The notes under the pieces are model-generated. The model searched no databases. It saw only the letters and a list, made by a program, of their open reading frames with translations, and was not told the origin of the DNA. From the IMG/VR virus record IMGVR_UViG_643348547_000010, positions 1 to 45,905 of that record: a stretch of 45,905 bases of DNA. One strand, given 5' to 3'. The stretch comes from a virus (lineage: Duplodnaviria; Heunggongvirae; Uroviricota; Caudoviricetes). Shown here in pieces: positions 12,390 through 34,007 of this stretch. Both the position numbers and the translations under genes were made by a program. Positions within the stretch are counted from its first letter, which is position 1. Each line of letters begins with the position of its first letter.

Positions 12390-12578
12390 TTATTTTATTA
12401 TTCTTCCGAACAATACAATTCCGAATACTACAAAGCCGAACCATGCCGCTGCACGCAACAGAGATTCCAATTGAAACCCATTTTTATCAAAATGTATGAA
12501 TAGCATAAAAACGCTGCACATATTAGTACAATAAAAGTTATTTGAACCATCATATCTCCTTTTATTGCGGAGTGACAT
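12390..12578 (-). CDS. Small hypothetical protein with C-terminal hydrophobic segment
   Basis: 62-aa ORF only; overlaps the end of the upstream gene. Confidence 0.3.
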   Translation of the reverse strand: MSLRNKRRYDGSNNFYCTNMCSVFMLFIHFDKNGFQLESLLRAAAWFGFVVFGIVLFGRIIK

Positions 12579-14232
12579 CCTGTGGTCGCCACCAGTATGT
12601 CTGGTTAAACTCTTTCTTCGAACGTTGCTCCATTTTACGCAAATAGCCTGGTGAAAAATACTCCTGCATCTGGTTAAAGATCATGTGATCGAGAGCCGCC
12701 TTCAAGTACCAGAGATTCGCACCAGGCATCAAACCTTTCCCCAGCTTCACCAGATCACCACCAGTCTGCTCACTCTTCCCTTCCACAGCATTTAACGGTA
12801 TGCCCTGAGCAATCTTCACTACGTCATCAACCAGACCAGCTACCGGGCCAAGCATCGACGCCAGCGCGCCGCTTCCGTACCTAGTGTGATCTGACAATAA
12901 AAAGTCACCGTAAAGGCCAAGACCACCACCTTTCAGTAGAGCACCAAGCCAGAATTTTGCGGCATCTTCTCCTGTCATCTCTCGAGGATTACGACCAGAC
13001 GCAAGGTCGTTAAGTTGCTGCGACAAAGCGCCAAGAATGGTCGTACTGGCAATAAACGTCGCAATATATGCCGCACGCCCACCAGCAGACGGCATACCCA
13101 TAGCGCGTGACCAGTGACGCATAACAACCGAGATAGGGAACGATTTAAACAGGAAAACACTTCTCGTTAATTCACCTTTCCATGTTCCACGCTGAATACC
13201 AGAACCGGTTATCAGTTGCTCACGTGCTCCCGGTGTAATAACAGCCATATCAACTTCTTCAGTTACGGCACCGAGCAGTTTACGCATTGCCTCAAATTTC
13301 ACGCGTTCAGGCTCACCAAGATGTTTAACTGCTGAATCAGGGATACGCATAATGCTTTCCGGTGTCAGCATCGTATTATTACCGTTCCCCCAGTCCTCCT
13401 GTTTCGCCAGCTTCCATACGCTCCAGTCTGTGTCAGTAATCCCTTTGCTTTTCAGGATACGAAAATCAGAGTCATCGAGGCTACGAAGGTCTGGTGTCCG
13501 TGACACTACTTCTCCCAGGCTTCCCATCATGGTTACGCCATAGGCGCGCTTGTGCGCATCTGACCATGCTGTAAGCCCACTGGCACGCATTACCGCCGTT
13601 GCCGCCCAACGAGACACTGACGGCCCCATATTATCCATCGCCCAGCGGTTAACGCTGCCAAGTAGAGATTCCATCGCCAGACCAGCGCGGCGCGCCCGCG
13701 CAAGTTCTGTACGGTTCGTTGGGTCCATAGCTTCAAGCTGGTTGCGGAATAACTGGTTCATTGGAAGGTTGGTAACCTTCGCAGACAGATACATGGTTCC
13801 AAGATCAGAGAACGATGACAGCAACGCGGATCCGAGTCTGCTGGCAACCAGCCAGTTGCGGATATTGTCAGACCATCGCGCGATGTGCGGATTCGCTACA
13901 GGCTGTGTCTTTCCGGAAATAAAGTTGTACAGATTCTCTGTGTTGTTCGCCAGCCGCTCGACTTTACCGGTTTTACTCGGGTTAGCTGTTGCCGTTTCTG
14001 CCTTCACCTGATCAAGAAGAGAGCGGAAAACATGATCGGGGTTTGGGCCATATGTTTCCACCAGTGCAATATCTTTACTGATACCTTCCAGGTGACCGAC
14101 CATGATTTCCCATAGAGAGCGATCGCCATAAAGTTGCTGATATTGCAGATAGGAATCTGCATCTTTGAAATGTATCTGTCGTGATGCATTACCACGGTTA
14201 GCACGTGCGCCGGAAATTCGCATTCCGGTATC
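12562..14232 (-). pseudogene. Internal virion (ejection/core) protein gene, C-terminal portion, separated from its 5' part by IS629 copies
   Basis: 557 codons of phage sequence downstream of IS629 left end; the track ORF (12562-14325) starts inside the IS. Confidence 0.7.
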
Positions 14233-14286
14233 TGAACCGCCCCGGGAATCCTGGAGACTAAACTTCCTGAGAAAGAGGTAAACAGG

Positions 14287-14613
14287 ATGACTAAAAATAC
14301 TCGTTTTTCCCCCGAAGTCCGTCAACGGGCAGTCCGTATGGTTCTGGAAAGTCAGAGCGAATATGACTCACAATGGGCGACAATTTGTTCCATTGCTCCA
14401 AAGATTGGCTGTACGCCGGAGACTCTGCGTGTCTGGGTTCGCCAGCATGAGCGGGATACCGGGGGCGGTGATGGAGGGCTCACCACCGCTGAACGTCAGC
14501 GTCTGAAAGAGCTGGAACGTGAAAATCGTGAACTGCGCCGCAGTAACGATATCCTTCGCCAGGCTTCCGCTTATTTTGCGAAGGCGGAGTTCGACCGCCT
14601 CTGGAAAAAATGA
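14287..14613 (+). CDS. IS629 OrfA
   Basis: 108-aa ORF, same protein as 422-748 apart from one residue. Confidence 0.9.
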
Positions 14614-15500
14614 TGCCACTGCTGGATAAGCTGCGTGAGCAGTACGGGGTCGGACCGCTATGCAGCGAACTGCATATTGCCCCGTCAACGTATTACCACT
14701 GTCAGCAACAGCGACATCATCCGGATAAACGCAGTGCCCGTGCGCAGCGCGATGACTGGCTGAAGAAAGAGATACAGCGCGTATACGATGAAAATCACAA
14801 GGTATACGGTGTGCGTAAAGTCTGGCGTCAGTTGTTACGGGAAGGTATCAGAGTGGCCAGATGCACTGTGGCACGTCTCATGGCGGTTATGGGACTTGCC
14901 GGTGTTCTCCGGGGTAAAAAGGTCCGTACGACCATCAGCCGGAAAGCCGTTGCCGCAGGCGACCGCGTAAACCGTCAGTTCGTGGCAGAACGACCTGACC
15001 AGCTGTGGGTGGCTGATTTTACTTACGTCAGCACATGGCGGGGCTTCGTCTATGTGGCGTTCATCATTGATGTGTTTGCCGGATACATCGTGGGGTGGCG
15101 GGTCTCATCGTCCATGGAAACGACATTCGTGCTGGATGCACTGGAGCAGGCGTTATGGGCCCGTCGACCGTCCGGCACGGTCCATCACAGTGATAAAGGT
15201 TCTCAGTATGTATCGCTGGCCTACACACAGCGGCTTAAGGAAGCCGGATTACTGGCATCAACAGGAAGTACAGGCGACTCGTATGACAACGCGATGGCGG
15301 AGAGCATCAATGGTCTTTACAAAGCGGAGGTAATACACCGTAAGAGCTGGAAAAACCGTGCAGAAGTGGAACTGGCCACACTCACGTGGGTGGACTGGTA
15401 TAACAATCGACGATTGCTGGAAAGGCTGGGCCATACTCCTCCGGCAGAAGCAGAAAAAGCTTATTATGCTTCCATCGGAAACGATGATCTGGCAGCCTGA
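14610..15500 (+). CDS. IS629 OrfB (DDE transposase catalytic part)
   Basis: 296-aa ORF overlapping orfA in the -1 frame as in IS3-family elements. Confidence 0.9.
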
Positions 15501-15542
15501 GTTCACAGATAAAACACTCTCCAGGAAACCCGGGGCGGTTCA

Positions 15543-15896
15543 GTCGCCTGCGGCAACGGCTTTCCGGCTGATGGTCGTACGGACCTTTTTACCCCGGAGA
15601 ACACCGGCAAGTCCCATAACCGCCATGAGACGTGCCACAGTGCATCTGGCCACTCTGATACCTTCCCGTAACAACTGACGCCAGACTTTACGCACACCGT
15701 ATACCTTGTGATTTTCATCGTATACGCGCTGTATCTCTTTCTTCAGCCAGTCATCGCGCTGCGCACGGGCACTGCGTTTATCCGGATGATGTCGCTGTTG
15801 CTGACAGTGGTAATACGTTGACGGGGCAATATGCAGTTCGCTGCATAGCGGTCCGACCCCGTACTGCTCACGCAGCTTATCCAGCAGTGGCATCAT
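15543..15896 (-). pseudogene. IS629 orfB, truncated
   Basis: Encodes first 117 aa of OrfB then runs into the neighbouring IS end. Confidence 0.8.
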
Positions 15897-16219
15897 TTTT
15901 TCCAGAGGCGGTCGAACTCCGCCTTCGCAAAATAAGCGGAAGCCTGGCGAAGGATATCGTTACTGCGGCGCAGTTCACGATTTTCACGTTCCAGCTCTTT
16001 CAGACGCTGACGTTCAGCGGTGGTGAGCCCTCCATCACCGCCCCCGGTATCCCGCTCATGCTGGCGAACCCAGACACGCAGAGTCTCCGGCGTACAGCCA
16101 GTCTTTGGAGCAATGGAACAAATTGTCGCCCATTGTGAGTCATATTCGCTCTGACTTTCCAGAACCATACGGACTGCCCGTTGACGGACTTCGGGGGAAA
16201 AACGAGTATTTTTAGTCAT
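15893..16219 (-). CDS. IS629 OrfA (in truncated copy)
   Basis: 108-aa ORF matching the other orfA copies. Confidence 0.85.
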
Positions 16220-16273
16220 CCTGTTTACCTCTTTCTCAGGAAGTTTAGTCTCCAGGATTCCCGGGGCGGTTCA

Positions 16274-17076
16274 GTAAGCTTATTCAGCCCACCAGTAGCG
16301 ATCGTGTTATAAGCCTCTCCAAGAAATGAAGACAACTCGGCATCGTTCATCAGTTGTCCATCGGCTCGGATATAATATTTGCGATCCAGCTTACCTATAA
16401 CATCGCTAACCCACTTATCCTTTGATACTGCCCCAACCTTTTCCATAGAATGATGTTGAGGGATCCCCCAGTTTTCGAGATAGCCAATGTCCCCACCAGC
16501 ATCATTAAACCGGCGGCGCAGCAGCTCTGTAACTTCTCTCCACGCCTTAGCACCGTTTCTTGCTTTAGCATTGCCAGTATTTTGCCCCCGCATTTCATAT
16601 ACCAGGTCACGTACGCCCGCTTCATCTTCAAACAGACCAAAAAAGCGAGGATCAACTGCTTCGAATGCCTCCTGCAATTGACTCAATGCATAATCACGGG
16701 TGGCTTTTGTTCTGGATTCAACAGAGAGGAAATTAGATTTACCGTCTGCATTAAAAGCTATAGTACGGTTAAGAGCGCCAAGTTTCCCATCAGCCCCTTG
16801 ATAGCTATTGATAAATTTATCCAATCTCTGACGTGCGGCTATAGTGAGAGCCACACGACGTTTCTTTAATGTCGCTTCTCGCTGTAATTCTTCAGATGCC
16901 AATTGTGCTGCACGATACAACCGTTCTGATTCGGAAAGTTGTCGCCACGACATCGGGTCATCACGAGCAATGGAGCGCATATTTCGATAAATGCGGTCTT
17001 CAATGTTCTGTATTTCTCGCGCCGTTAACGTGCGCTGCGCCGCCTGCTGGACCGCTTGTATACATTCCTGTCTCAT
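16274..17076 (-). pseudogene. Internal virion (ejection/core) protein gene, N-terminal portion, truncated by IS629
   Basis: Track ORF 16225-17076 reads from phage sequence into the IS end (last 16 residues IS-derived). Confidence 0.7.
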
Positions 17077-17081
17077 TTAAT

Positions 17082-18884
17082 TTAACCTCTCAAGAAACAC
17101 GCCACAGCAACATCAAACAGGCTGGAATCCTGTATTGCCTGCTCACTTTCCCTGTTCGCTTCATCCAGTACTTCACGCGCACTGCGCGATTGTGGATTAC
17201 CATCATCATCCAGCACGGTGATTATCATGTCCGGAGATTCAAGCAGCGAGTCTTCAGCTATACGCAGATCAATATCTCCTGCCGGATCTGCCATCATTTT
17301 TTGTTCTGTCTGTTGCAATATCTTACCGGGCTCAAAAGGAGCTACTTCGTCTGGCGTCCTGACCTCTGCTGTTTTATAGAATGAAACAGCCTGAGCATTA
17401 AGTTCACTTTCTGCCTGCTGTCGTCGTGCCAGTTCTGCTCGAGCTTCAAAAAACTGACCTCCAGGCTCGTGCGGCGCCAACGCGTTACGGGAAAATTCCA
17501 GGCGTTCTTGTGCCTGCCGGATTCGTTGGTCAATATCGCGAATTCTGGCCTGTTTATCTGATCGAGCACGAGACAAAGCTTTACCGCTACCAGTTGGCTC
17601 TTCTGCAAGAATTTGTGCGCGCTGTTCAGTGAGATTGTCGATAATTCGTTGGCTATTAGCGATTTCAGACTGGTAAACCTGTCTATCGCCACGCGACAAA
17701 AGCTGCGCGGCCTGTTCTTCAAGCAACCGATTTTCTATAGCGCGCGCCGTTTTTCCATCATCTACAGATGACAGAGCCTCATTAACTGCCTGAGAAAGCA
17801 GACTCTTGTGCCCAGGGATTTCACTGAAAGATGCAGACTCAACAATGCTGGCAACGTCTACAGGTCTCCCCTGGCTAACATCAGACATGGCTTTTCGCAG
17901 AGCCTGAATGTGAGAATTACGCGAAAGCACGTTGATCGGCACGCCAGGAGCAATATCAATTTCAGCATGATGAGCGGCATTCGCCGCCAGTGCAGCATCG
18001 ATATCAACTGGTGAAAAATTTGGTGCGCTTGTAGACTCGCCGCGAGAGTTAATAAATCTGCCGACACCACCAAACGCCACCCCAAGAACAGCATCAATAG
18101 CAATTGCCTGTCGATCCAACACATCATACTGGTTAGCCATTTCGCTATAGCCACCATCACGAAGCGTTTTTGCAGTAAGCCCACGCTGTGCCATACCGAA
18201 CGCAATATTTGTACCTGCGGCATAGGCAATATCTGGCGTTGCACGTACTGCTGTTGCTGCGGCGCGTCGCACTGAACTTTCACCCGTCCGCGCAAGCTGA
18301 GCCGCCACACCTTCCGCCAGCGCACCACCAGCACGTAACCCGAGGCTCATAGGGATCAGTGTTCCGGCACCAGCAGTAATACCCTGCACTAATCCCGCTT
18401 CCTGCGCCGTCCTGAAATCAACACCCTGTGCTGTAAGCCGTTCAAACTCAGAAAAACCCTGTAGAGAAGTTACCGCCGCAGCACCTCCGACCGGACCACC
18501 GAGCGTTGTACCGACAACAGCCTGCCCGCCCATATCGAACAACCCATAAAGGACCTGCCCGGCGGTTCCGGTTGTCGCGGCATCAGGCGTCAGCCGCTTA
18601 ACCTGCTGCTCTGCTAGTTTTCTCTGCTCAGCAATGTATGAAACTGAAGTGTCATTGATCGAGGTGTTTTCGTTAACAAACTGAGCAATCGGGGATACGA
18701 TTTTATCCATCCCTGCCCATAGCAACTGATCTGGCTTTGCCACCAGCCCGGAGTACAAACCAGACAATGCCGCTCCTACAGCATTGTCGAAAAAACCAAC
18801 ATCGCTGTTAAAGCCAGCTGGATTTGATGCTGCTTCGTCAAGCTGCTGATTCTGGTTTACTGGATTAAGGCCAAAGTAACTCAT
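17082..18884 (-). CDS. Internal virion protein (Gly/Ala-rich, coiled-coil C-terminal half)
   Basis: 600-aa ORF in the gp14/15/16-like block between nozzle and tail fibre genes. Confidence 0.65.
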   Translation of the reverse strand: MSYFGLNPVNQNQQLDEAASNPAGFNSDVGFFDNAVGAALSGLYSGLVAKPDQLLWAGMDKIVSPIAQFVNENTSINDTSVSYIAEQRKLAEQQVKRLTPDAATTGTAGQVLYGLFDMGGQAVVGTTLGGPVGGAAAVTSLQGFSEFERLTAQGVDFRTAQEAGLVQGITAGAGTLIPMSLGLRAGGALAEGVAAQLARTGESSVRRAAATAVRATPDIAYAAGTNIAFGMAQRGLTAKTLRDGGYSEMANQYDVLDRQAIAIDAVLGVAFGGVGRFINSRGESTSAPNFSPVDIDAALAANAAHHAEIDIAPGVPINVLSRNSHIQALRKAMSDVSQGRPVDVASIVESASFSEIPGHKSLLSQAVNEALSSVDDGKTARAIENRLLEEQAAQLLSRGDRQVYQSEIANSQRIIDNLTEQRAQILAEEPTGSGKALSRARSDKQARIRDIDQRIRQAQERLEFSRNALAPHEPGGQFFEARAELARRQQAESELNAQAVSFYKTAEVRTPDEVAPFEPGKILQQTEQKMMADPAGDIDLRIAEDSLLESPDMIITVLDDDGNPQSRSAREVLDEANRESEQAIQDSSLFDVAVACFLRG

Positions 18885-21394
18885 TGCGGAATATCTCCGG
18901 AGAATCTCTGACGCTTCTGTGTCAGATTAAGAACAACGGGAGAACCATCATCTTTCAGCAGATAACCAGTACCAAGTTTCACCAGGTACTGACTATCGCC
19001 GTAACTTTGCAAACCATACTGACCAGGCGGTGTTTTTATCCCGGAGCCGACAACTTGTTCATTCCAAGCCTGATTAACCTGCTTATCGAATTGCTCTGCA
19101 GACATTCCCCACGGCAAAAGGACATTCCCCATTCCGTTATAGTCATGCACGCCACCTGTAGCTACGTTAACAGCCTGTTTCCAGACATCATTGTCAATTT
19201 CGCCTGATACCACGCCTTTTTTCGCCATCACACCAGCGTAATAATCCTTTGCGATCTCGTATGCCATTGATGCGCCCTGAGCGTCACCAGCAAATGCATC
19301 CTTCACCATGTCAGAAAACTCAAGGCGAAGATCAGCATCTTTAGGCATCGGAATACCTTTCGCATCATCAGTACCTTTACGAGCCGCCGCGCCAGCAAGA
19401 ATTGTCTGCGCAGCGGTTTCAGGAGACACGGAAACATCCGGATTAAACCAGTTTTTTTCTGCCAAAATACCACCAGGCTTATCCATCAGTATCCCGGCAA
19501 CGGCAGCAGATGGAGCGTTGGCACTGATCTGCTGTAGTGCTGACATATACACCTGCCCACCACCAGTGCTCTGCCTGATGGTATCGAGATATGCTGCCTG
19601 TTGGGAAACTGGAGCATCACGAAAGAAAACACCGATCTGATTGGCCTCGTCTTTGGAAAAGAACGTCAGTGGAGTGCCATATGACTTAGCAAGGTCACTG
19701 ACCTGAGCGGCACGCAAGGCAACGCTCTGTCCAAAGTTATCCTTATTGCTCATGTCGATAGGCTTTGCCTGTCCGGAGGCAAGAGAGAACTGCACAGGAT
19801 CCGACTGCCGCTGCTTTATCACCTGATTTGCAGCCGAAACAACGTTGTCATAAAGAGTTGCGCGTGCCGCATACCCCTCCCCTGTATCACCAGTATCCGG
19901 GCGTAATTGCTCAACATATGCTGTAATGCTGCTTGTCGGCATGTTGCGGAAAGAGCCTATATACTGTCCGGCGATCTGCGTATTCTTAAACTCGGTATAT
20001 CGCAGGTTTCCTTCTCTGACTCCATAAGCTGCAATAAAATCATCCTCACCAGGTGGGTTAGGAAATTCAATGCCACGCATATACGCAGCCGTCGCATCGC
20101 GAACCCGGCTGTCGAGCATCGTTTTATATTCAGCCTGCTGTTGTCTGGCTAGTGCATCAGTCTGTCGCAACACGCTGGCCTGATCTGATTCACTTAAAGC
20201 ATCGAACCAGGCTATACCGGTATAACGTTTATTTTTTGTCGGTAGCTGAGAAAGCCCCAGCGCAGCACTAACACCTGCAGTTAACTGCTGATCACTGTAT
20301 GGCTGGCTACCGTTTTCATGATGGATAATGGCTGCACAAAGCGCCTTCAGGGTATCAGGATTTGATGCATCGAGAGGCTCATCAGCAGAAACGCCAAGTT
20401 GTTCGCACACTGCTTTGATATACGACATAGTGTCATTTTTATCAGTAGGCGGTGCCCAGCGATTAATTATCTCGCTGACGGTATCAATACCCTGCCGCTG
20501 ATACGACATCAGGTTCCGCCCTAATGCACGAATACCGTGTTCAGGGGTTTCGAATTTGGCAAAGCGACCATCATCACCAGTCTGCCCAACCCACGGATTA
20601 GTTTTGCTGTATTCAAGATTGCCGGGGTTATTGTTGCGTATACCGCGGGTACGATCGGAAGAGCCACTATCTGCTACAGCACGGCGATAACCAGCAGCAG
20701 TATCGCTTAACTCGCCGTTTTGCTGTCTTACCTGAAGATAGTTTGCTCCAATAGCATTTTGAGCAGTTGCTTTTGCTGTTGCTTCTTTAAACTCGATTTT
20801 CTTGGCCTGGATTTGCTCGTCACTCCAGCCATGTGCAATGCCGTAATCCTCAATTTGCTGGAAAGTTTGCTTATTAGCCAATACGTATGCGGCGTTGTCG
20901 CCATACAATGCTGCGGCATTTTTACCATTGTTCAGCAGCGTAGCCTGAAACTGGCCTTCTTCGTAGGCATTTATTTGCCCTATCTCGTGCCGCCCGGCCT
21001 GCGTAGTGAACTGAATGCGCTGCTGCTGCGCCTGCTGCATGAAAGCATTACGAGCCTGTTCATCCGGCAGCGACATAGCCAGTTGTTCGACCTGAGCATC
21101 AAACTGCTGCGTATACTCCTGACCTTTTCCAATAGCATTTTTCCCTTTCAGGTTAAGCAAACCTGTTTCAGGGTTATTCAGCAGATCGCTGCTTATCTGG
21201 CTTAAGCTAAGAGAAGCATCCTGAGCCATAGCAACATTCGCACGCTGTTTTGCCTGCGCAATAATACCTGCATATTGCTCTGCAACATCGCCAAGTACAT
21301 CACCGACATTTGGTGTCTGAAACGATGAGAATCCCTGCGTCGAAATCCCTCTGCTCTGAACCTGACGGCCCGATGTTGTTGGTACAACTGGCAT
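18881..21394 (-). CDS. Internal virion core protein (T7 gp15-like position) with a conserved globular domain
   Basis: 837-aa ORF; gene order after gp14-like gene; contains GIRNNNPGNLEY motif region. Confidence 0.7.
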   Translation of the reverse strand: MPVVPTTSGRQVQSRGISTQGFSSFQTPNVGDVLGDVAEQYAGIIAQAKQRANVAMAQDASLSLSQISSDLLNNPETGLLNLKGKNAIGKGQEYTQQFDAQVEQLAMSLPDEQARNAFMQQAQQQRIQFTTQAGRHEIGQINAYEEGQFQATLLNNGKNAAALYGDNAAYVLANKQTFQQIEDYGIAHGWSDEQIQAKKIEFKEATAKATAQNAIGANYLQVRQQNGELSDTAAGYRRAVADSGSSDRTRGIRNNNPGNLEYSKTNPWVGQTGDDGRFAKFETPEHGIRALGRNLMSYQRQGIDTVSEIINRWAPPTDKNDTMSYIKAVCEQLGVSADEPLDASNPDTLKALCAAIIHHENGSQPYSDQQLTAGVSAALGLSQLPTKNKRYTGIAWFDALSESDQASVLRQTDALARQQQAEYKTMLDSRVRDATAAYMRGIEFPNPPGEDDFIAAYGVREGNLRYTEFKNTQIAGQYIGSFRNMPTSSITAYVEQLRPDTGDTGEGYAARATLYDNVVSAANQVIKQRQSDPVQFSLASGQAKPIDMSNKDNFGQSVALRAAQVSDLAKSYGTPLTFFSKDEANQIGVFFRDAPVSQQAAYLDTIRQSTGGGQVYMSALQQISANAPSAAVAGILMDKPGGILAEKNWFNPDVSVSPETAAQTILAGAAARKGTDDAKGIPMPKDADLRLEFSDMVKDAFAGDAQGASMAYEIAKDYYAGVMAKKGVVSGEIDNDVWKQAVNVATGGVHDYNGMGNVLLPWGMSAEQFDKQVNQAWNEQVVGSGIKTPPGQYGLQSYGDSQYLVKLGTGYLLKDDGSPVVLNLTQKRQRFSGDIPQ

Positions 21395-25489: not shown

Positions 25490-25815
25490 TCACCTCCGTT
25501 ACCGTACAGAGTTTCAGCCGCTGATTTTTCTACATCCCCGGAAACAGGAGCGATCGCCATATCAGTGATCTGCAGATCGGCGCTGCGATTAACACCATCG
25601 TCAGTTTCTCTGGCAGACAGGCCTCGAATAACAGCCTTTGCAGTTATCATCACTTCTGTTCCGACGCCCTGAGGTTGCGCCTTCAGCTTATTCAATGTGT
25701 CGTTATTAAGAGTGATGCACAGCCCCCACGGGTATTCATCGCGAGTTCTGGTTTCTCCGCTCTCATCCTGGTAGCTGTCAGTGCCGGTTTTGAGGTTTAC
25801 GAGTTCCATATACAC
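25486..25815 (-). CDS. Hypothetical virion-module protein
   Basis: 109-aa ORF, coupled to downstream gene. Confidence 0.5.
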   Translation of the reverse strand: MYMELVNLKTGTDSYQDESGETRTRDEYPWGLCITLNNDTLNKLKAQPQGVGTEVMITAKAVIRGLSARETDDGVNRSADLQITDMAIAPVSGDVEKSAAETLYGNGGE

Positions 25816-25859: not shown

Positions 25860-26204
25860 TTACACGCCCAGTTCTTTACGCTTATCTGCGATCTTCTCGC
25901 GGAGCGTTTCGGCTTTGGCGTTATGGTGTGGCTTCTCGTTAAAGAGCAATTCGTACTCTTCACGGAGCTTATCCAGTTCACCATCATCTGACACGTCGTT
26001 GATGATTTTGGTGCTGGTTGCTGCCATTGACACCTTTCCTGCAACTTTTGCTTTTGCCTGTCTGGCTGCATCGTTAACAGGTTCCAGTGCGCTACCAGGC
26101 TCACCTTCGTATTCGATTTCTGCCCCCTCCGGCCACAGAGTGTTATGGATATGAGAGAGGCGCAGAACGCGGTATCTTGGTTTCTCACCTGACATCGATA
26201 TCAC
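25860..26204 (-). CDS. Hypothetical virion-module protein
   Basis: 114-aa ORF. Confidence 0.5.
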   Translation of the reverse strand: MISMSGEKPRYRVLRLSHIHNTLWPEGAEIEYEGEPGSALEPVNDAARQAKAKVAGKVSMAATSTKIINDVSDDGELDKLREEYELLFNEKPHHNAKAETLREKIADKRKELGV

Positions 26205-26205: not shown

Positions 26206-26643
26206 TTAACCAGTTACTTTTGAGCGGATCGGATACGGCGTATTGGCATCAACATCAAGACTGATACCAGCAGTGAATTCGCCAGCCGTTAGTGGGCCAG
26301 TTGCGACGGAGTAGTTAACACGCAGATATCGCTGAACACCGGCAGGCACCTTTGCAGAAACAACTCGTTTACCTGCTGTCAGGGCGGTCTTTGCCAGTGC
26401 GCCACTATCATAAATAGTGGTCCATGAGCTGTTATTCTCACTCGTCTGCAACTGGATGTTTACAGTTGCATCACCGCTTGCTGCGGCGGCTGTGTTAACC
26501 AGCGCCCAAAACTCAAGCGGGTAACCCACGCCGATATCACGACGTTTTCCGTCAATTGGACCGAGATCGATTACGTCAGTAGAAGCCGCGGTATTCGTAA
26601 CCGCCTGAGCTTCGGAGAACATCAACAGTTTGTCGGTGATCAT
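26206..26643 (-). CDS. Probable capsid-associated protein (decoration or minor capsid)
   Basis: 145-aa ORF directly downstream of major capsid gene. Confidence 0.5.
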   Translation of the reverse strand: MITDKLLMFSEAQAVTNTAASTDVIDLGPIDGKRRDIGVGYPLEFWALVNTAAAASGDATVNIQLQTSENNSSWTTIYDSGALAKTALTAGKRVVSAKVPAGVQRYLRVNYSVATGPLTAGEFTAGISLDVDANTPYPIRSKVTG

Positions 26644-26694: not shown

Positions 26695-27687
26695 TTACAC
26701 CACGCGGGCTTCTGTTTCCAGAAGCGCATCAGTTTCACGGATTGGTACACCACGGAATGAAGTCCACCACTCGCCTTCTGTCTCTTTTACGCTGATAGCC
26801 AGAGATGTTTTCTCCAGAGACTGCAGATCAAGAGCCTGGCCTACAGTGCGGTTCATGTAGAACACCGGGCGGCCCATGCCACGGTTTGGAATGCGATGTA
26901 GTGCTTTAACCATCAACTTCGCAATATTTGCGGCAGAGGATGGTTCTGAAAGATTGCTGACATCGATGTTTGCAATGCGAACAACATAACGCCAGTCACG
27001 CAGAGCAAGTCCGTTATCCCATTTGTAATGGGTGCGATAGCCTTCGTACTTGCCGCCATTAGCATCTTCCAGTGTCACCTGGCCTTTATCTTCCATCTGG
27101 ATGCCAGCCTTCTGCCCTTTCGGGAAGATGCCATGCACGGTGTTTTCGCCCCACACCACTAACCAGATTGAGGTGTTATCTGTACCCGTGCCACCAGCAT
27201 CAATGATGTTCTGAGCATTACCCGCAGACAGGCTGGAATAGCGGGAGGACAGTCCCATAAACTGCTGAGGGTTAACGCTGGAATCACCATAAAACAGCGT
27301 CTGCGCCATCTGCTGATTCATCGCTTCAATAAATGCGCGGTCTTCAGACAGGCGGAATTCGGCGGTATTGCCGTTCAGATCAGCCAGTGACTTATCGACT
27401 TCCGCATAGGTTTCCAGCATGCCAACGGAATCGGTTACCTGCACTGTGGTTGATTTGCTTGGCTGTACGCCATAGTTCAGCAAACGCCAGGTAGCTGAAG
27501 GTAAACCAGAACGAATGGTGGTTCGGTGTCCGGTAGGAAGGTTCCCTTCAACAAAAGGCATATCCTGAAGGATTGGGTTGGTTTGACTGAGAAGCTCGAT
27601 AATCTTATCGACTTTCCCGTTTGGATCGACGCGCTTACCCCAGTCAGCCAGCGTTAGCGCAGTTAAGCCTTTAACAGCCATTGTCAT
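26695..27687 (-). CDS. Major capsid protein
   Basis: 330 aa, position after scaffold gene, size and composition typical of podovirus HK97-fold capsid proteins. Confidence 0.75.
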   Translation of the reverse strand: MTMAVKGLTALTLADWGKRVDPNGKVDKIIELLSQTNPILQDMPFVEGNLPTGHRTTIRSGLPSATWRLLNYGVQPSKSTTVQVTDSVGMLETYAEVDKSLADLNGNTAEFRLSEDRAFIEAMNQQMAQTLFYGDSSVNPQQFMGLSSRYSSLSAGNAQNIIDAGGTGTDNTSIWLVVWGENTVHGIFPKGQKAGIQMEDKGQVTLEDANGGKYEGYRTHYKWDNGLALRDWRYVVRIANIDVSNLSEPSSAANIAKLMVKALHRIPNRGMGRPVFYMNRTVGQALDLQSLEKTSLAISVKETEGEWWTSFRGVPIRETDALLETEARVV

Positions 27688-27695: not shown

Positions 27696-28397
27696 TTATT
27701 TGCCATAGAGCACTTCGGCCGCACTACGCTGGCCTTCATTACCACCGGTGACCATGCCATCTTCAGACATCGCCTTTCCGATTTTCACGAACGTTTTGAC
27801 CAGATCAGGGTGATTACCCAGCCCGGTGGTGTTCAGATATTCTTTGAGTTCAGGTGTCCCGAACTGGTCAAGCGCACGCTGTGCGGCGCTAAGGTTAGAA
27901 ATCAACTTGTCGCCACCGATTTCTTTGTCGGCTTTTACATCCGCAGCCCACTGCTCGGTTGTTTTCTGCCAGGCTTCTGCCTGGCGCTGCTGAACACCTG
28001 CCAGAATCTTCGGATAAGCATCAACCAGCTTTTGCGCTTGCTCGTTGGTCAGGTTTAGTTCTCGCGCCACCGGCTCGAATTCCTTCAACGCTTCTGTATC
28101 CAGCTCTACGCCTTCGGCAGCCTGAAACTCGTACTTTTCAGGCGCACCCTCTGGTTTATCGCCGTCCTTTTTTTCATCCTGCTTATCGTTTTCAGGCTTT
28201 TTGTCATCAGCAGGTTTATCGCCATCAGCAACAGGTTGTGGCTTATCACCTTCCTGTTGTGATGGATCACCAACTGGAGCAGGGTTATCACCTGCAGGCG
28301 CTGACGGTTCTGACGCAGCCGGAGCTGCTCCACCATCGACTGGTTGCTCATTGCAAAGACGGCGATACAGCAAACGCTCAAATAAATTCATGATCAC
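27696..28397 (-). CDS. Scaffolding protein
   Basis: Highly acidic, Pro/Ala/Asp/Lys low-complexity N-terminal half and helical C-terminal half, between portal and capsid genes. Confidence 0.7.
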   Translation of the reverse strand: MIMNLFERLLYRRLCNEQPVDGGAAPAASEPSAPAGDNPAPVGDPSQQEGDKPQPVADGDKPADDKKPENDKQDEKKDGDKPEGAPEKYEFQAAEGVELDTEALKEFEPVARELNLTNEQAQKLVDAYPKILAGVQQRQAEAWQKTTEQWAADVKADKEIGGDKLISNLSAAQRALDQFGTPELKEYLNTTGLGNHPDLVKTFVKIGKAMSEDGMVTGGNEGQRSAAEVLYGK

Positions 28398-28690
28398 TCC
28401 TGTTCACTGGCCTCTTTGGCCATCTTCAAATACTGTTCAGGGCAATGCGCCATAACGCGCTGAAACAGTTCCAGCGCCAGATTGCGTTGCCCCTCATTAA
28501 ATGCCATTGCCATAGCGTCCATCGGTGAGATAGCGGAAAACACACGGCCTTTCTCCAGCACTGACCAGACAACGCGACGCCCCTGTTCACTGCTCATGAC
28601 AAAGCGAATGTCATCAATTTCACGCTGTGCCATGTCACGTTGATTACGGGCGTTTTCTTCTTTCAGTTGATCGTCTTCGTAATCTGTCAT
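28394..28690 (-). CDS. Hypothetical protein between portal and scaffold genes
   Basis: 98-aa ORF, coupled to flanking genes. Confidence 0.5.
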   Translation of the reverse strand: MTDYEDDQLKEENARNQRDMAQREIDDIRFVMSSEQGRRVVWSVLEKGRVFSAISPMDAMAMAFNEGQRNLALELFQRVMAHCPEQYLKMAKEASEQE

Positions 28691-30366
28691 TGTGATTGCC
28701 CACCCTGACCACTAACTGCATTCGCCATAGCTGACAAAACACTCGGATCCGAAGTTTTAGCTTCGCTTAGCGTCTTGGCACCCTGTGCCGCCACCATCCC
28801 CATCGCCATCATTTGTTGCTGCTGTTGTTGCTGTGCCCGTTGCTGGCGAGCCTGCTCAACCTGTTCCTGCGGAACAATGACGGTTGGAGACACTCCGGAC
28901 ATATCAGCGAATGCATCGATCGCCTGATCAACGTTGAGTTTGTCGAGAGCTTCTGGTTTCGCTTGCGCAAGTTGACCAATGAAGTTGACCGTAGACGCCA
29001 GACTGGACAGGCCGATAGACTTCTGCGCCTGAGCCATGACGGAAATGTATTCGACCTTCAGGGGCATACCTTCCATCGCGTCAGGCGGTGGCGGCAGCAT
29101 GTTTTTACGCACCATCATCGAGAAAGCGCGGTCAATGAGAGGATTAAGACATTCGTCGTTCAGACGCTCCAGAACCGGCCCCAACATCAGAAGTTTTTCT
29201 TCTTTCATTTCGATCACCGCTTCAACAGGCATCGAGCGGGTATTGATGTTCTGCAACATCATGAACAGATCGACAAAGTAGGCGCTGTTAATGATTTGAC
29301 GGGTGTCCTGAATGTCTGCCACCAAATCTGCTGTACTGGGGTTAACCAGATAAGCAGGCCTGAAACCATCCTGACCAGTAATCTGATCGATATACGTGAT
29401 GTCGCCAGGAAGAAGGGAGGCACGCTGATTCTTGAGGGAAGTCGGAGCAACCATCGGCGGATTGGTGGCTTTATCAATCAACTGCGACTTGCGCTTCTGG
29501 AGAAGCTGCAATGCCTTAACAGGTCCAAGCGCCAGCATACCCGGGCATGATGATCCATAAACATCTTCGCCGTTAACTTCCCAGCGCGGAGCCATAATTG
29601 GAAACTCATCGAATCCGGACTCACGCAACAACTTGTCGTTATCGCCACCAACCTCGTAATAAACCGATTTGAATGGCTTGTTCTTGCTATCCAGCTTCGA
29701 TGTATCGCGGTCAATGTTCGGGTAAACCGAATGCATCACTTCAATCCACTTCTCGTAGGTGCCGCTTTCCCACATGCTTTTTACGGATTCGCTGACGTTA
29801 TTTAGCCCGAACTCCTGAACAAGCTGACGAACAGTCATAGAGAACTTGCGGAAACAGGTGTCCACACTGCCACGAGGTGAGTTAGCCAGGTAGTAACTGC
29901 CTATCGGGAATGGCATTGTGCGAATGATGTCCTCGTCATCCTCCAGCACCGCCATTGCACCAGTGCTGTATGTGCCGAGGCTTCCGTATAACTGCGGAAG
30001 GGACTGGTAGAGATTCGAATTATTGAACATATCGTTCATGCGGTTCTGAACTGCCTCAAGCCACAACTTAACAGGGCCATAGTCCATCATTTCAGGATCT
30101 GGCGTAGCCAGGCGAAACCACGGACGGGCGGGGCTTGTTATGCCTGACATCATGCCGCTGGCAAGAGTGCGCGCCGCCATAGTCCCGGTCGAATCAATAA
30201 TGCGTGTATTGCGTCGATCGTTACGGTTAACCTCAGAAGTCAGAAAGCGGGAACCACGCGGGTTGATGTAATCACTCAACTCGCGCCAGTGCGGCTCGAA
30301 CGACTGACGCTCGCTTTCAAGTTGTGCGAACTGTTTGTTCAATCGCTCTTTAGTTGTTTCCGCCAT
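28687..30366 (-). CDS. Portal (head-tail connector) protein, T7 gp8-like
   Basis: 559 aa; Gln-rich low-complexity C-terminus (...QQRAQQQQQQQMMAMGMVAAQGAK...) like T7-type portals. Confidence 0.85.
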   Translation of the reverse strand: MAETTKERLNKQFAQLESERQSFEPHWRELSDYINPRGSRFLTSEVNRNDRRNTRIIDSTGTMAARTLASGMMSGITSPARPWFRLATPDPEMMDYGPVKLWLEAVQNRMNDMFNNSNLYQSLPQLYGSLGTYSTGAMAVLEDDEDIIRTMPFPIGSYYLANSPRGSVDTCFRKFSMTVRQLVQEFGLNNVSESVKSMWESGTYEKWIEVMHSVYPNIDRDTSKLDSKNKPFKSVYYEVGGDNDKLLRESGFDEFPIMAPRWEVNGEDVYGSSCPGMLALGPVKALQLLQKRKSQLIDKATNPPMVAPTSLKNQRASLLPGDITYIDQITGQDGFRPAYLVNPSTADLVADIQDTRQIINSAYFVDLFMMLQNINTRSMPVEAVIEMKEEKLLMLGPVLERLNDECLNPLIDRAFSMMVRKNMLPPPPDAMEGMPLKVEYISVMAQAQKSIGLSSLASTVNFIGQLAQAKPEALDKLNVDQAIDAFADMSGVSPTVIVPQEQVEQARQQRAQQQQQQQMMAMGMVAAQGAKTLSEAKTSDPSVLSAMANAVSGQGGQSQ

Positions 30367-30380: not shown

Positions 30381-30587
30381 TTACTGACCAAGCAGCGTTT
30401 TACCGCTGGTATTAGCGGTTGATGTGTCGCCCTGAGAACCGGTAAGCAGCGTAGAACTACGACCAGCAGCAGCGCGACGGCGACGAGTTTCTTCGTCGCG
30501 GGCATCAACAACGGCGGCATCCTGCTCCTGTGGTGCTGCCTGAACTTCTGGTGTTGCAGGCACTGACGGTGAGCTACCCATGCACAT
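30381..30587 (-). CDS. Small hypothetical protein upstream of portal
   Basis: 68-aa ORF, charged and Ala-rich. Confidence 0.35.
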   Translation of the reverse strand: MCMGSSPSVPATPEVQAAPQEQDAAVVDARDEETRRRRAAAGRSSTLLTGSQGDTSTANTSGKTLLGQ

Positions 30588-30655
30588 ATCAATGACTCCG
30601 TACGCAATTAAATTATTACCAATTTAACCATATATGATTTATTTATCGTAGATAG

Positions 30656-30684
30656 TTGACATTTAACGCACGAATTATTACCTT
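30656..30684 (+). promoter_or_regulatory. Possible promoter for the tRNA transcript (TTGACA at 30656-30661)
   Basis: Consensus -35 hexamer; -10 is weak and overlapped by operator site E. Confidence 0.3.
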
Positions 30685-30693
30685 TCAGGTAAG
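30677..30693. promoter_or_regulatory. Operator-like 17-bp palindrome (site E)
   Basis: ATTACCTTTCAGGTAAG. Confidence 0.45.
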
Positions 30694-31014: not shown

Positions 31015-31091
31015 GTGGCATTAGCTCACTTGGACAGAGCAACCGCCTTCTAAGCGGTTGGTCGCAGGTTCGAATCCTGCATGCCACGCCA
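31015..31091 (+). tRNA. tRNA-Arg (anticodon UCU), phage-encoded
   Basis: Cloverleaf by hand: acceptor GTGGCAT/ATGCCAC, D-arm GCTC/GAGC, anticodon stem ACCGC/GCGGT with loop CTTCTAA, T-arm GCAGG-TTCGAAT-CCTGC, discriminator G, CCA; sequence differs from host argU. Confidence 0.85.
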
Positions 31092-31134
31092 GAATCACGC
31101 CTAAGGACCGTGATGCCAGAAGTTCCAGGGGCTT

Positions 31135-31176
31135 GGCGGTGATGGTTTCCCTTGAAGGACTATCACCGCCCTTTTT
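31135..31176 (+). terminator. Intrinsic terminator downstream of tRNA
   Basis: 9-bp stem GGCGGTGAT/ATCACCGCC followed by TTTTT. Confidence 0.6.
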
Positions 31177-31254
31177 ACAGCAGGACGCCATTGCGATGGC
31201 TTCATGCTGTAAACCAGTACAGCCACGGAAGGCATAACTCATTGCTTCCAGTTC

Positions 31255-31279
31255 GCCCGGTTCGCCGGGCATTTTTTTT
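31255..31279 (+). terminator. Intrinsic terminator
   Basis: GCCCGGTTCGCCGGGC followed by T8. Confidence 0.65.
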
Positions 31280-31387
31280 GGCGTGATACGTCACAATTAT
31301 GATATCGATGCAGATTACGACATACATGAAAAACATGTCATAGTATCTCCTGAGGTTAATCTCGATTCAAAAAGAGGATGATTTATA

Positions 31388-31735
31388 ATGATTAAAATCA
31401 ATAACGTACGTGGTGCTAGCGTTAGCGTCAACGGAGAAGACTTCACTGGTCATCATATTACGATTAACAATGGAAAAGTGATCGTTGATGGTGTCGAAAA
31501 AAATAGCAATCTTGACGGACAGATTAACGTAACAATTAATGGAAGCGTGGAAGGTGTTGAGATTGAAAATGGATCAGTGACTGTAAGCGGTGATGCACAT
31601 TATGTGAAAACTATGTCTGGTGATGTCCATTGTTCCAATGTATTGGGAAATGTAAACACCATGTCTGGAGATGTAATCTGCGAAACTGTTGGTGGAAACG
31701 CCAGCACAATGTCTGGAAATATTATCAAGAAATAA
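31388..31735 (+). CDS. Small repeat-containing protein (beta-strand-rich, bactofilin-like pattern); accessory gene
   Basis: 115 aa with alternating G/V/N pattern and tandem TMSGDV/TMSGNI repeats; strong RBS AAGAGGATG; own terminator. Confidence 0.6.
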   Translation: MIKINNVRGASVSVNGEDFTGHHITINNGKVIVDGVEKNSNLDGQINVTINGSVEGVEIENGSVTVSGDAHYVKTMSGDVHCSNVLGNVNTMSGDVICETVGGNASTMSGNIIKK

Positions 31736-31779: not shown

Positions 31780-31820
31780 CCTCATCAGAGGATATCAACG
31801 ACATTATCCCCAGCAGCGGA

Positions 31821-33296
31821 TTAAGCATAGGGATCGTAATCTGTAATGGCCCTTCCCTGCTGGCTTTGCTGTCCTGGTATATTTATGCGTTTCGAGACCG
31901 GGAAAGCAAACGTCAGCAGTAGCGCATCGCCTTTACCCGGCGAACGCCCAAGCCGCTCCTTGATATCTTCCTTCGGTTCGATAACGATTTTACCGTCCAC
32001 TCGAACTTTGTACTCTGCCGCCGACAGGTCGTCCGCTGTTTCCTGGTCATCCAGCATGCCGCCCAGCCTCAGCCATGTCTTGCATGAGTTGAACATCTCC
32101 CCACGCTTGTTGAGCATCTGCGGGTCAGTAGACGCGCCACCGAACGGAACAAGTTGCCATGTGCGCCCCCAACCGTCACCGATTGACTTCAGACCAGTTC
32201 CGTAACCGAAGTCGATGAACACCGCGTCAGCCTGATACTGGTCTTCAAAGTCAGCGATACGCTTTGCCATAATCAGATCGTCAGTGGTCTTGTTGCCGGT
32301 CCACAGCACCTTACTGTGCAGCCCCTGCCGCAGGTATATCACCGCGTCATCAACACCGGAGTATGCAGGGTCAACGCCGATTATCACCGGAGCATGCGCC
32401 ACCTGCGCAGCGGTTACCACCCGTTTCATTGCCTCATCAGTAAGACCGGTAGGGATAAACTGCAATTCAGATGCATCAGGGAATATGCCGCGCACACGGA
32501 TTTTAACGAAGTCGCTGTCTTCCCCGTAGTCATCAACCCATTTCTGCAACTGCTGTTTGTTAGTGCCTTCCACCGTTCGGCTGTCAATCTGCGCAGTTTT
32601 CCAGCGGTGTTTATATTTGCGGAAACATTCGCGGAAACGTCCGGTATTACGCGTCGGGTTTCCGAACGCCACCCAGATAATCTCAGTGTCTTCGTCCGTT
32701 AGTGCACCCTCGGCAACTTCCCACACCAGATCCGCAATGTTCGACGCTTCATCGAATACCACGATGATGCGTTTGCGCTCGTTGTGTAGTCCGGCGAATG
32801 CCTCAGTGTTGTGCTCAGACCAGGGGATTGCGTCAGCTCGCCACCGCTTGTCGTGTCCAGGATCATTGCTGTACATCGCGGTAGCGGTACAGGTAAACCA
32901 GTCTTTCGTGATAGCAAGGTTCGACCACTTGATAATTTCCGGCCAGGTCTTCGTTCGTAGCTGGTTGTCGGTGTTGGCGGTCACCACGACCTTACAATCC
33001 TCGCAAGTGGACATGCCCCAGTTGATCAGCATTGAGATGAATGCGGATTTACCAATACCGTGACCAGAAGCGCGTGCCAGCATAAGCGGCTGATAGCGCG
33101 TCTCTGGATTCTGCAGGTGATCACGTATCTCTCGGAACGCATCAGCCTGCCACTGACGTGGGCCGGTAGCATGTGCCAGTTCAGTCCCCTCTTCCCCCCA
33201 CGGGAACGCATAGAGGGCATAGCCAAGCGGATCGTGAGTGAACCCTGCAATATCATCGATCAACTGCTCTTCAGGAGATAACGCTGTATCTGTCAC
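31821..33296 (-). CDS. Terminase large subunit
   Basis: 491 aa, Walker A-like ASGHGIGKS, acidic nuclease-type C-terminal half; directly downstream of small subunit. Confidence 0.85.
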   Translation of the reverse strand: MTDTALSPEEQLIDDIAGFTHDPLGYALYAFPWGEEGTELAHATGPRQWQADAFREIRDHLQNPETRYQPLMLARASGHGIGKSAFISMLINWGMSTCEDCKVVVTANTDNQLRTKTWPEIIKWSNLAITKDWFTCTATAMYSNDPGHDKRWRADAIPWSEHNTEAFAGLHNERKRIIVVFDEASNIADLVWEVAEGALTDEDTEIIWVAFGNPTRNTGRFRECFRKYKHRWKTAQIDSRTVEGTNKQQLQKWVDDYGEDSDFVKIRVRGIFPDASELQFIPTGLTDEAMKRVVTAAQVAHAPVIIGVDPAYSGVDDAVIYLRQGLHSKVLWTGNKTTDDLIMAKRIADFEDQYQADAVFIDFGYGTGLKSIGDGWGRTWQLVPFGGASTDPQMLNKRGEMFNSCKTWLRLGGMLDDQETADDLSAAEYKVRVDGKIVIEPKEDIKERLGRSPGKGDALLLTFAFPVSKRINIPGQQSQQGRAITDYDPYA

Positions 33297-33889
33297 TGAT
33301 TACCATCCTGACGTTCTTTGAGTCGCTTCCTGGCTGCTGCTATGCGATCAGCAATTGTCACATTCACATTAACATCCAGACGTTCTTTGAACGCGTTGAC
33401 ATCAACATGCTTACCAATCAGCTCAAGGTTCTTCACCTTGTCAGGCCATTTAATTTTTTTGAGGATTGTCTCTATCGAATCCTCGTTCATGTTCATGATG
33501 GTCGATGACAGATCAAAGCCACTAAGCGTAGTGCGCCAGATTTTCGGCCACTCACGGATTGGTTTAAGGCTCCCATCGTCGTTGAGGATGTCGATCACGT
33601 CCATCTGGTCGATCTCCACCAGGCGCATGAGAACGTAATCAGCACTGACGCGCATTCGTTTGTTGCGCTCCTCCATCAACTCGGCAATCCGTTTTTGAAT
33701 GCGTTCATCGCGCATCATGACACTGGCTTTAACTGCCGCTGTATTTGGGGAGAATCCTGCGTTAATCGCTGCCTGAGTCTGGTTTTCAGGCGTTTTGATG
33801 TATGACTGGCAATAAGCCTCCTGCATTGCTGTTAGTGGCTTAAATTGCGTTGATTTGCGTTTATAGGTTTTAGGTTCAGCAGGCATCAT
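33293..33889 (-). CDS. Terminase small subunit
   Basis: Motif QEAYCQSYIKTPENQTQAAINAGFS typical of terminase small subunits; start moved to ATG at 33889 because a terminator hairpin lies inside the longer track ORF. Confidence 0.7.
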   Translation of the reverse strand: MMPAEPKTYKRKSTQFKPLTAMQEAYCQSYIKTPENQTQAAINAGFSPNTAAVKASVMMRDERIQKRIAELMEERNKRMRVSADYVLMRLVEIDQMDVIDILNDDGSLKPIREWPKIWRTTLSGFDLSSTIMNMNEDSIETILKKIKWPDKVKNLELIGKHVDVNAFKERLDVNVNVTIADRIAAARKRLKERQDGNQ

Positions 33890-33905
33890 AACCACCGTGG
33901 TAATA

Positions 33906-33922
33906 GTTACCGTTGTGGTAAT
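33906..33922. promoter_or_regulatory. Operator-like 17-bp palindrome (site N) upstream of terS
   Basis: GTTACCGTTGTGGTAAT, preceded by GGTAATAGTTACC. Confidence 0.45.
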
Positions 33923-33932
33923 AGTACCATGC

Positions 33933-33958
33933 AAAATAAAGCCGCCATAGTTGGCGGC
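33933..33958 (-). terminator. Intrinsic terminator upstream of terS
   Basis: Minus-strand hairpin GCCGCCAACTATGGCGGC followed by TTTATTTT. Confidence 0.5.
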
Positions 33959-34007
33959 AGTATTCAAAACCCATCAAATTCATCATGCATAATCTACTCG
34001 TGACATG

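Follow-up and report, generated by a model that had tools for sequence, protein, structure and literature searches.

A T7-like virion module in an Escherichia coli prophage is best read as that of an epsilon15/phiV10-type temperate podovirus

Temperate podoviruses of the epsilon15/phiV10 type make up the described genus Uetakevirus, and the phage group itself, the remote kinship of its tail and ejection proteins to those of T7, its members with K1 endosialidases and the repressor sites scattered over its genomes are all known already, from the literature or from RefSeq annotation. The attachment (att) core ATTGAGTGGGAATGATT at the 3′ end of guaA has likewise been published for ZX5, phiV10 and epsilon15 (PMC9782041). 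The present study analyzes a stretch of 45,905 nucleotides from a tailed phage (IMG/VR record IMGVR_UViG_643348547_000010, positions 1 to 45,905; the window is this whole stretch) and in particular its block of virion genes at 12562–33967, which an earlier note on the same DNA had described as a T7-like module inside a temperate prophage with lambdoid regulation. We are highly confident that this block is the virion module of an epsilon15/phiV10-type temperate podovirus of the genus Uetakevirus, with a K1-type E. coli host and an integration site between yfgI and guaA.

By megablast the window was 97–98% identical in DNA to HEMP4, vB_EcoP_ZX5, phiv142-3 and phiV10 over 85% of the query, the remaining 15% without megablast cover being insertion-sequence (IS) DNA; the O157 typing phages 9 and 10 were also among the 97–98% identical matches, and identity to epsilon15 was 76%. 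Gene order agreed with the annotation of epsilon15, phiV10 and Tyrion, three phages classified in Uetakevirus. The att core was matched exactly at 4217–4233, adjoining yfgI, the integrase gene forms the end of the window and the second att copy lies beyond that end. An integrase at the window end together with an att core beside yfgI implies that the window holds almost the whole of a prophage between yfgI and guaA. The nozzle gene was found at full length in 504 of 5426 complete E. coli genomes (approximately 9%), and the best-matching prophages sit in K1 strains such as CE10 and APEC O1, i.e. K1 extraintestinal pathogenic E. coli and avian pathogenic E. coli (APEC). What had been taken for an unusual mosaic is the standard architecture of a described genus. 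The best homologues of the virion proteins were all podoviral, from the epsilon15/phiV10 group, Carin-1 and LME-1, and none fell in the non-podovirus families that the earlier note had named as the outcome that would speak against it. A P22-like or siphovirus identity was considered and rejected, with no matches to P22 gp4, gp10 or gp26 and best matches all from the epsilon15 group. The head set of the genus was present by Pfam (gp7 capsid, gp10 staple and Bbp16-type cement). The virion gene set of the genus is incomplete in one respect, the orthologue of phiV10 p20/epsilon15 gp17 being split by an IS, which concerns the viability of the prophage and not its ancestry.

The resemblance to T7 that had been read from gene order and recognizable patterns holds for part of the module: a deep relationship to T7 is supported for the portal, the adaptor, the nozzle and the gp14-like protein, whereas capsid, scaffold and terminase do not reach the T7 families. 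The family PF12236 is common to the portal in the window (E 3.6e-187) and T7 gp8 (E 2.8e-113). The Pfam families of T7 gp9, gp10, gp11, gp12, gp13 and the gp17 N-terminus did not reach gathering scores with any window protein, and the capsids belong to different families, PF21703 for T7 gp10 and PF20911 for the window. Sub-threshold matches to PF11090 and PF03906 fell on the syntenic partners of T7 gp13 and the gp17 N-terminus. The apparatus for tail and ejection is part of the broad T7/P22/epsilon15 “transient tail” lineage; taken whole, the module is of the epsilon15 type and not of the T7 type. The same T7 assignments were reached by Hardies in 2016 (PMC4819975).

The head-to-tail adaptor (24881–25489, minus strand, like all genes of the virion block unless stated otherwise) is a protein of 202 aa with the fold of T7 gp11/tail tubular protein A. 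Its AF2 model (pLDDT 85.5) matched in Foldseek the Carin-1 connector (E 1.5e-16, TM 0.81), T7 gp11 (7BOX_M; E 1.5e-6, probability 1.0, TM 0.56), KP32 tail tubular protein A and, at 20% identity, the LME-1 adaptor, and a comparison with the Carin-1 adaptor besides Foldseek gave E 1.5e-26. No T7 match came from sequence profiles of the adaptor, whether compared with the PDB or with T7 gp11 itself, and there was no match to the Pfam family PF17212 “Tube”. The RefSeq annotation of epsilon15 mentions that its gp11 matches T7 tail tubular protein A in HHpred. The adjoining tail nozzle (22410–24881, 823 aa), the counterpart of T7 gp12/tail tubular protein B, matched the Carin-1 chain 8CK1_A “Tail Nozzle” at E 2e-217 and belongs to a very large family of 18,296 clusters at 50% identity. 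In two homologue searches the listed matches were almost all close enterobacterial ones (nearly all at least 58% identical for the full-length adaptor and at least 82% for the nozzle) and of little use for deep profiles, so a separate representative search was used. A nozzle profile of 34 sequences matched the solved chain “23sh_T nozzle gp13” (E 1.8e-5) and was aligned by hhalign to T7 gp12 over residues 306–466, the central domain only (E 6.4e-5, probability 64%); there was no match of the nozzle to the Pfam family of T7 gp12, PF25675. A strong match between hidden Markov models (HMMs) of the epsilon15 and T7 nozzle central domains has been published (E <1e-10; Hardies 2016, PMC4819975).

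Downstream of the nozzle lie the internal or ejection proteins. Internal virion protein A, at the gp13 position (21946–22410, 154 aa, PHROG 308 internal virion protein), matched PF11090 T7_Gp13 below threshold (E 0.088), and the next protein (21407–21946, 179 aa) belongs to the T7 gp14 family by Pfam (PF24072, E 8.2e-8, 32.8 bits vs a cut-off of 27) and is named “virion core protein, T7 gp14 family” by PGAP in CE10. The 837-aa protein at the gp15 position (18881–21394; PHROG 992, 1044 and 7182) has a muralytic domain at residues ~249–403 and matched the N-terminus of the 1295-aa Gp29 (9VVP_L, E 1e-38) and the endolysin 7Q47 (E 2e-17). The 600-aa protein (17082–18884, PHROG 1145), a homologue of epsilon15 gp16, is a second candidate for the gp15-like role, an assignment taken from PMC4819975 and made by synteny, not sequence similarity. 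The 837- and 600-aa proteins are linked to T7 only via the muralytic domain. The gp16-position protein is the last of the set, and its reading as a T7 gp16 homologue rests on synteny and on PMC4819975, in which epsilon15 gp17 is linked to T7 gp16 only through joined HMMs (Hardies 2016).

This last gene is in two pieces in the window. The N-terminal 270 codons lie at 16275–17076 (open reading frame, ORF, 16225–17076; PHROG 684 positions 1–272) and the C-terminal ~554 codons at 12562–14232 (ORF 12562–14325; PHROG 684 positions 271–831), the PHROG label being “virion structural protein”. Together they make up the intact 824-aa gene of CE10 and phiV10 p20, and in alignment with the 824-aa orthologues of CE10, phiV10 and Tyrion and with epsilon15 gp17 they abut between “...GGLNKLT” and “DTGMRISG...”. 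As read from these alignments, 12562–14325 and 16225–17076 are one gene cut at codon 270. The ORF at 12562–14325 had been called a gp17-like fibre N-terminus in the earlier note and is instead the C-terminal two-thirds of the ejection protein; PF03906, the T7 gp17 N-terminal domain, was not found in it. The note had also overlooked the insertion between the two pieces, IS3-family DNA of ~2 kb at 14233–16274: a complete copy runs from 14233 to ~15543 on the plus strand, and its first 732 bp are repeated directly behind it, inverted, at 15543–16274. The resulting 732-nt inverted repeat is 100% complementary, each outer end has a left inverted repeat, and comparison with intact CE10 showed the flanking phage sequence to be contiguous. 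The transposase matched NCBIfam transpos_IS3 (NF033516) at E 1e-93, the sole recognition in an NCBIfam scan of ten unassigned proteins, and Rfam found two ALIL frameshift pseudoknots. Given the split gene, the prophage most likely could not make infectious particles. Another IS3-family copy interrupts yfgI (DUF5384; window 1–4123) at the same place as in CE10, and it carries a group II intron (reverse transcriptase/maturase ORF 1819–3342; Rfam Intron_gpII 3346–3432).

The receptor-binding protein, which had been placed within the virion block, lies outside it: the tailspike gene is at 6448–9567 on the minus strand and encodes 1039 aa, with Pfam matches to End_beta_propel (E 1.7e-232), End_tail_spike and Peptidase_S74. 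Its domains are an N-terminal tail attachment, a K1 endosialidase and a C-terminal S74 chaperone. The N-terminal 180 aa matched the fibre N-terminus of Carin-1 in the solved 8CK1 tail complex (E 9e-31), and PF03906 was detected in this part of the gene (8968–9567) below threshold (E 0.0027, 17.8 bits vs 25.2). The full set of endosialidase domains implies that the tailspike is specific for the polysialic-acid capsule of K1 strains, the specificity also reported for ZX5 (PMC9782041). By its endosialidase tailspike the prophage family targets E. coli with polysialic-acid capsules.

The rest of the block, which is contiguous and runs from the small terminase subunit (TerS) through the large subunit (TerL), portal, scaffold-position protein, capsid, adaptor and nozzle to the four or five internal proteins, is of the kind found in epsilon15. 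TerS (33293–33889; Pfam Terminase_2 E 1.4e-29, PHROG 51) likely starts at the ATG at 33889, the ORF from the TTG at 33967 being over-extended by alignment with epsilon15 and Tyrion; TerL follows at 31821–33296 (PHROG 2 terminase large subunit, E 1e-52) and did not match T7 gp19. Both precede the portal, as had been noticed earlier. Between packaging and head genes is an insert on the opposite (plus) strand, 31015–31735, with a tRNA-Arg(TCT) at 31015–31091 (ARAGORN; Rfam tRNA) and a 115-aa gene at 31388–31735 (PHROG 3163). Then come a 68-aa homologue of epsilon15 gp3 (30381–30587; PHROG 831 and the phiV10 and epsilon15 annotation) and the portal of the T7 gp8 family (28687–30366; Carin-1 portal 8CK0_A, E 4e-178), whose Gln-rich C-terminus is present as previously described. 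A Bbp19-like small head-module protein (28394–28690; PF25181, E 2.8e-17) precedes the 233-aa scaffold-position protein (27696–28397; PHROG 458), which has the database label “protease” and for which no Pfam or NCBIfam match, no protease domain and no match to the T7 gp9 family PF05396 was found. The major capsid protein is of the epsilon15 gp7 family (26695–27687; PF20911, E 6e-150), and it is followed by a Bbp16-family capsid cement protein (26206–26643; PF21190, E 4.7e-47), a 114-aa homologue of epsilon15 gp9 (25860–26204; PHROG 590) and a capsid staple protein of the epsilon15 gp10 family (25486–25815; PF21628, E 1.2e-51), which PGAP names “capsid staple protein” in CE10. Terminase, capsid, cement and staple proteins are those of the epsilon15/BPP-1 head lineage and not those of T7; in published trees the terminase and capsid of epsilon15 cluster with siphoviruses (PMC4819975).

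The earlier note had suggested that a repeated operator motif might extend repressor control to the virion module because the genome was mosaic. The motif does extend there, including sites at TerS, the portal and the tailspike, and this is a layout common to the genus and not a product of mosaicism. The palindrome TTACC-N5-GGTAA, allowing at most one mismatch, occurred 14 times in the window against 0.9 expected, a count reached in 0 of 100 shuffles, and all 14 were in non-coding DNA, which is 7.5% of the prophage (binomial P ~2e-16). Three operator-like sites form the right operator (OR, 40068–40130) between the cro-like gene (39801–40031, minus strand) and the repressor gene (40186–40770, plus strand), one of them within the spacer of a PR-like promoter, TTGTTA-17-TATTAT, and two form the left operator (OL, 40828–40904), flanking a TTGACA-17-AATTAT promoter of the recombination operon. 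In the packaging genes a pair at 33907–33921 and 33889–33903 follows a terminator (33941–33958), and the second site ends on the A of the TerS ATG; this pair is kept in alignments of phiV10, Tyrion and epsilon15, where RefSeq has a repressor site at 12–27. The site at 30678–30692, upstream of the 68-aa and portal genes, is kept in the same three phages and corresponds to the annotated epsilon15 repressor site 2931–2947. A further site, at 9672, separates the tailspike gene from a small gene that diverges from it; pairs lie at 37730/37792 and 11068/11169, and a single site lies at 10052 before the antirepressor region. Where promoter-like hexamers are recognizable (PL, PR, 37.7 kb, 10.05 kb and 11.07 kb) the site overlaps or abuts the −10 or lies in the spacer. 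The count was 15 in epsilon15, 14 in phiV10 and 15 in Tyrion, at syntenic places, and the epsilon15 RefSeq record annotates its sites as “protein_bind: repressor”. The helix-turn-helix (HTH) N-terminal segment is kept between the 42%-identical repressors of the window and epsilon15, which fits the unchanged half-sites. Since the half-sites are the same in epsilon15, phiV10 and Tyrion despite a 42%-identical repressor, there is no covariation of operator and repressor to be read. When the repressor was overexpressed in ZX5, transcripts of endolysin and of holin fell by more than 99.9% (PMC9782041). Two observations stand beside these. Two sites exactly 62 bp apart flank a promoter-like sequence both at 37730–37806, in the gap between the P-like and DUF1064 genes, and at 40828–40904 (PL); this spacing is also present in epsilon15, phiV10 and Tyrion, which suggests that one promoter-operator cassette is repeated. 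In addition, a leader of ~90 nt (30587–30680) from the operator-like site at 30678 to the 68-aa gene is kept in epsilon15, Tyrion, phiV10 and the window, its conservation exceeding that of the sequence upstream of the site, and sites for integration host factor and RNase III are annotated near its equivalent in the epsilon15 record.

It is conceivable, and we put it forward tentatively as somewhat less than an even prospect, that uetakeviruses do without lambda-like antitermination and that a single HTH repressor acting on ~14 sites gates each transcription block: PL, PR, post-replication, packaging, head-tail, tailspike, two antirepressor genes and a moron. The TerS site would cover the region of the ribosome-binding site and the start codon, and silencing of the virion module would act on one block at a time.

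Several results weigh against parts of the account given so far, and they are best taken together with the other explanations. When 20 window virion proteins were compared by phmmer and BLASTP with 12 T7 structural proteins, fetched as T7 genes 8–19, nothing was significant and syntenic partners were only weakly favoured; the link of the adaptor to gp11 is by fold alone, at 12% identity, the nozzle alignment to gp12 spans ~145 columns at the probability already given, and a shallow profile of the 824-aa protein gave E 0.18 against T7 gp16 and no match against the PDB. It is also very improbable that the module entered a lambdoid prophage by recent recombination as a genuine T7-type (Autographiviridae-like) cassette. 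The order portal, scaffold, capsid, adaptor, nozzle and internal proteins does parallel T7 genes 8–16, and two Pfam families are common with T7, but a recent graft should not lack significant direct similarity to every T7 protein or have capsid, scaffold, adaptor, nozzle and fibre that fall short of T7’s Pfam families. The terminase genes moreover lie at the end of the module opposite to their T7 position, the whole genome, including its regulatory half, is collinear with phiV10, epsilon15 and Tyrion, and the operator motif is present in both genome halves of all of them, which points to long co-evolution. The disruption of the gp16-position gene is open to a different doubt, in that the odd structure of the IS may be either a real rearrangement or an assembly artefact, in which case the gene would be intact or more simply interrupted. 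Mis-joined reads, leaving an intact prophage or one with a simple single IS, are unlikely as the explanation. They would account for a perfect 732-bp inverted duplication abutting a complete IS, for left inverted repeats at both outer ends, for the lack of any target-site duplication at 14233–16274 when the junctions were compared with CE10 and for the absence of the IS junction from all 5426 complete E. coli genomes searched. However, the two junctions map to a single nucleotide position of the phage gene, whose flanks are contiguous, as expected of a real one-site insertion, and this IS family is active elsewhere in the genome, with its second copy in yfgI as in CE10.

The operator sites in the virion module are predicted ones, binding there being deduced from the motif, and those at TerS and the portal are without clear sigma-70 promoters. 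They could instead bind another factor (the cro-like protein alone, the regulator encoded at 34008–34346 upstream of TerS, or terminase at a pac site) or act as roadblocks in the manner of L5 stoperators, an explanation that we regard as improbable, if a little less so than an assembly artefact at the IS. The TerS pair is located where packaging sites are often found and overlaps the ribosome-binding region and start codon with no obvious −35/−10 pair, several of the sites follow terminators, and the predicted transcriptional regulator (PHROG 536) is encoded directly upstream of TerS. This would not account for the same 15-bp palindrome standing three times at the divergent repressor/cro promoters and twice at PL, which are classic operator positions, or for its abutting or overlapping the −10 hexamer at four promoter-like sequences; the palindrome also suits a dimeric HTH protein, and the epsilon15 curators annotated these as repressor sites.

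Outside the virion block the window contains an integrase, an HTH repressor (194 aa), a cro-like gene, a DnaT-like initiator, lambda-P, RecT and a PD-(D/E)XK exonuclease; the earlier note had named integrase, repressor, Cro, O/P and RecET-like genes. The divergent repressor and cro genes, their several operators and the presence of recombination genes in a PL operon are lambdoid features. The early-region proteins that were scanned gave no match to N or Q antitermination families, and the repressor had HTH domains only, no S24 peptidase (autocleavage) domain being found; the prophage is lambdoid only in part. A perfect LexA box, TACTGTATAAACATACAGT, lies at 9724–9742, ahead of a gene whose 85-aa product is weakly matched to an anti-repressor in PHROG (window 9724–10020), and it is kept upstream of the homologous gene (epsilon15 gp19 homologue) in epsilon15 and Tyrion. 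Because the repressor is without a cleavage domain and the LexA box is conserved, this suggests SOS induction through a small antirepressor. Close by, Rfam found isrK (10103–10179) and a C4 antisense RNA (10204–10288) directly upstream of an AntA/BRO-N antirepressor gene (10338–10994); the cassette, preceded by the operator-like site at 10052, resembles the antisense-controlled antirepressors of P1/P7 style. Between the antirepressor region and the virion block, at 11224–12378, are a 211-aa gene (plus strand, after two operator-like sites) and a 138-aa predicted lipoprotein gene (minus strand), candidates for lysogenic conversion or exclusion, for which Pfam, PHROG and NCBIfam gave no family match. 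A 251-aa early-region protein (35425–36180) matched PHROG 887 “queuine tRNA-ribosyltransferase” at E 6e-103 and is possibly a DpdA-like enzyme of 7-deazaguanine DNA modification.

Taken with what is known of homologues, the parts suggest how the virion would work. By homology, the gp8-family portal carries an adaptor ring with the gp11 fold together with a nozzle of the gp12 type, and the endosialidase tailspikes dock through an N-terminal domain like that of the Carin-1 tail complex and would degrade the K1 capsule. The 154-, 179-, 837-, 600- and 824-aa proteins would be carried inside the head and, once ejected, form a channel across the cell envelope, to judge from work on T7, P22 and epsilon15 (PMC4819975, PMC8954989), with the 837-aa protein presumably cutting peptidoglycan; without an intact gp16-position protein this copy would be expected to fail in delivering its DNA. 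Transcription would probably run in separate blocks, each after TTACC-N5-GGTAA sites identical to those of OR and OL and several also after a terminator, and the HTH repressor may directly silence the packaging, head-tail, tailspike and antirepressor blocks. For annotation, 12562–14325 should not be named a fibre and the prophage should be flagged as probably defective on account of its IS-split ejection-protein gene. The K1 endosialidase as receptor-binding protein marks the host as a lineage with K1 capsule, and the family is common in extraintestinal pathogenic E. coli. The value for discovery is small, since the prophage is of a known kind and has near-identical counterparts among published phages; the block-wise operator layout could nevertheless serve as a cheap and tractable system for non-lambda immunity circuits.

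The window can be set beside several known systems. Mycobacteriophage L5 has stoperators, many copies of one repressor site in non-coding DNA beyond the immunity region; they are asymmetric, oriented with transcription and more numerous, whereas the sites in the window are palindromic and mostly at promoter-like positions. T7 has the same order of adaptor, nozzle and internal proteins, with a muralytic domain in an internal protein, and shares with the window PF12236 and PF24072 and, as far as the fold and profile comparisons show, the gp11 adaptor fold and the central nozzle domain. It differs in its capsid, scaffold and terminase families and in the place of its terminase genes, which precede the portal in the window, and its muralytic domain is at the gp16 N-terminus, as opposed to the gp15-position protein; the window phage further has tailspikes instead of fibres, is temperate and encodes no phage RNA polymerase. 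LME-1, an integrated Legionella element (9EFK), has a virion with a T7-type tail of portal, adaptor, nozzle and fibre (PMC12407071), and its nozzle and adaptor match those of the window, but it is far more distant, with another host and other regulation. Carin-1, a phage of Cobetia marina, provides the nearest solved portal (8CK0) and the nearest solved nozzle, adaptor and fibre N-terminal domain (8CK1, tail); its host is marine, its fibre has another depolymerase domain, and the comparison here is confined to these proteins. Epsilon15, the type of the genus and a model podovirus for cryo-electron microscopy, is collinear, with homologues in the window of its gp4 portal, gp7 capsid, gp10 staple, gp11, gp12 and gp13–gp17, and differs in its tailspike and serotype-conversion genes and in its 42%-identical repressor. 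PhiV10 is closer and has an O157-specific tailspike and an O-acetyltransferase in place of the endosialidase. Compared with the phiV10 group, the IS3-family insertion in the p20 orthologue is particular to the copy in the window. PhiV10, ZX5, phiv142-3, HEMP4 and the prophages of CE10 and APEC O1 all have the gene order, repressor family and guaA att core of the window, and ZX5 and the prophages of K1 strains have the same endosialidase tailspike as well (PMC9782041).

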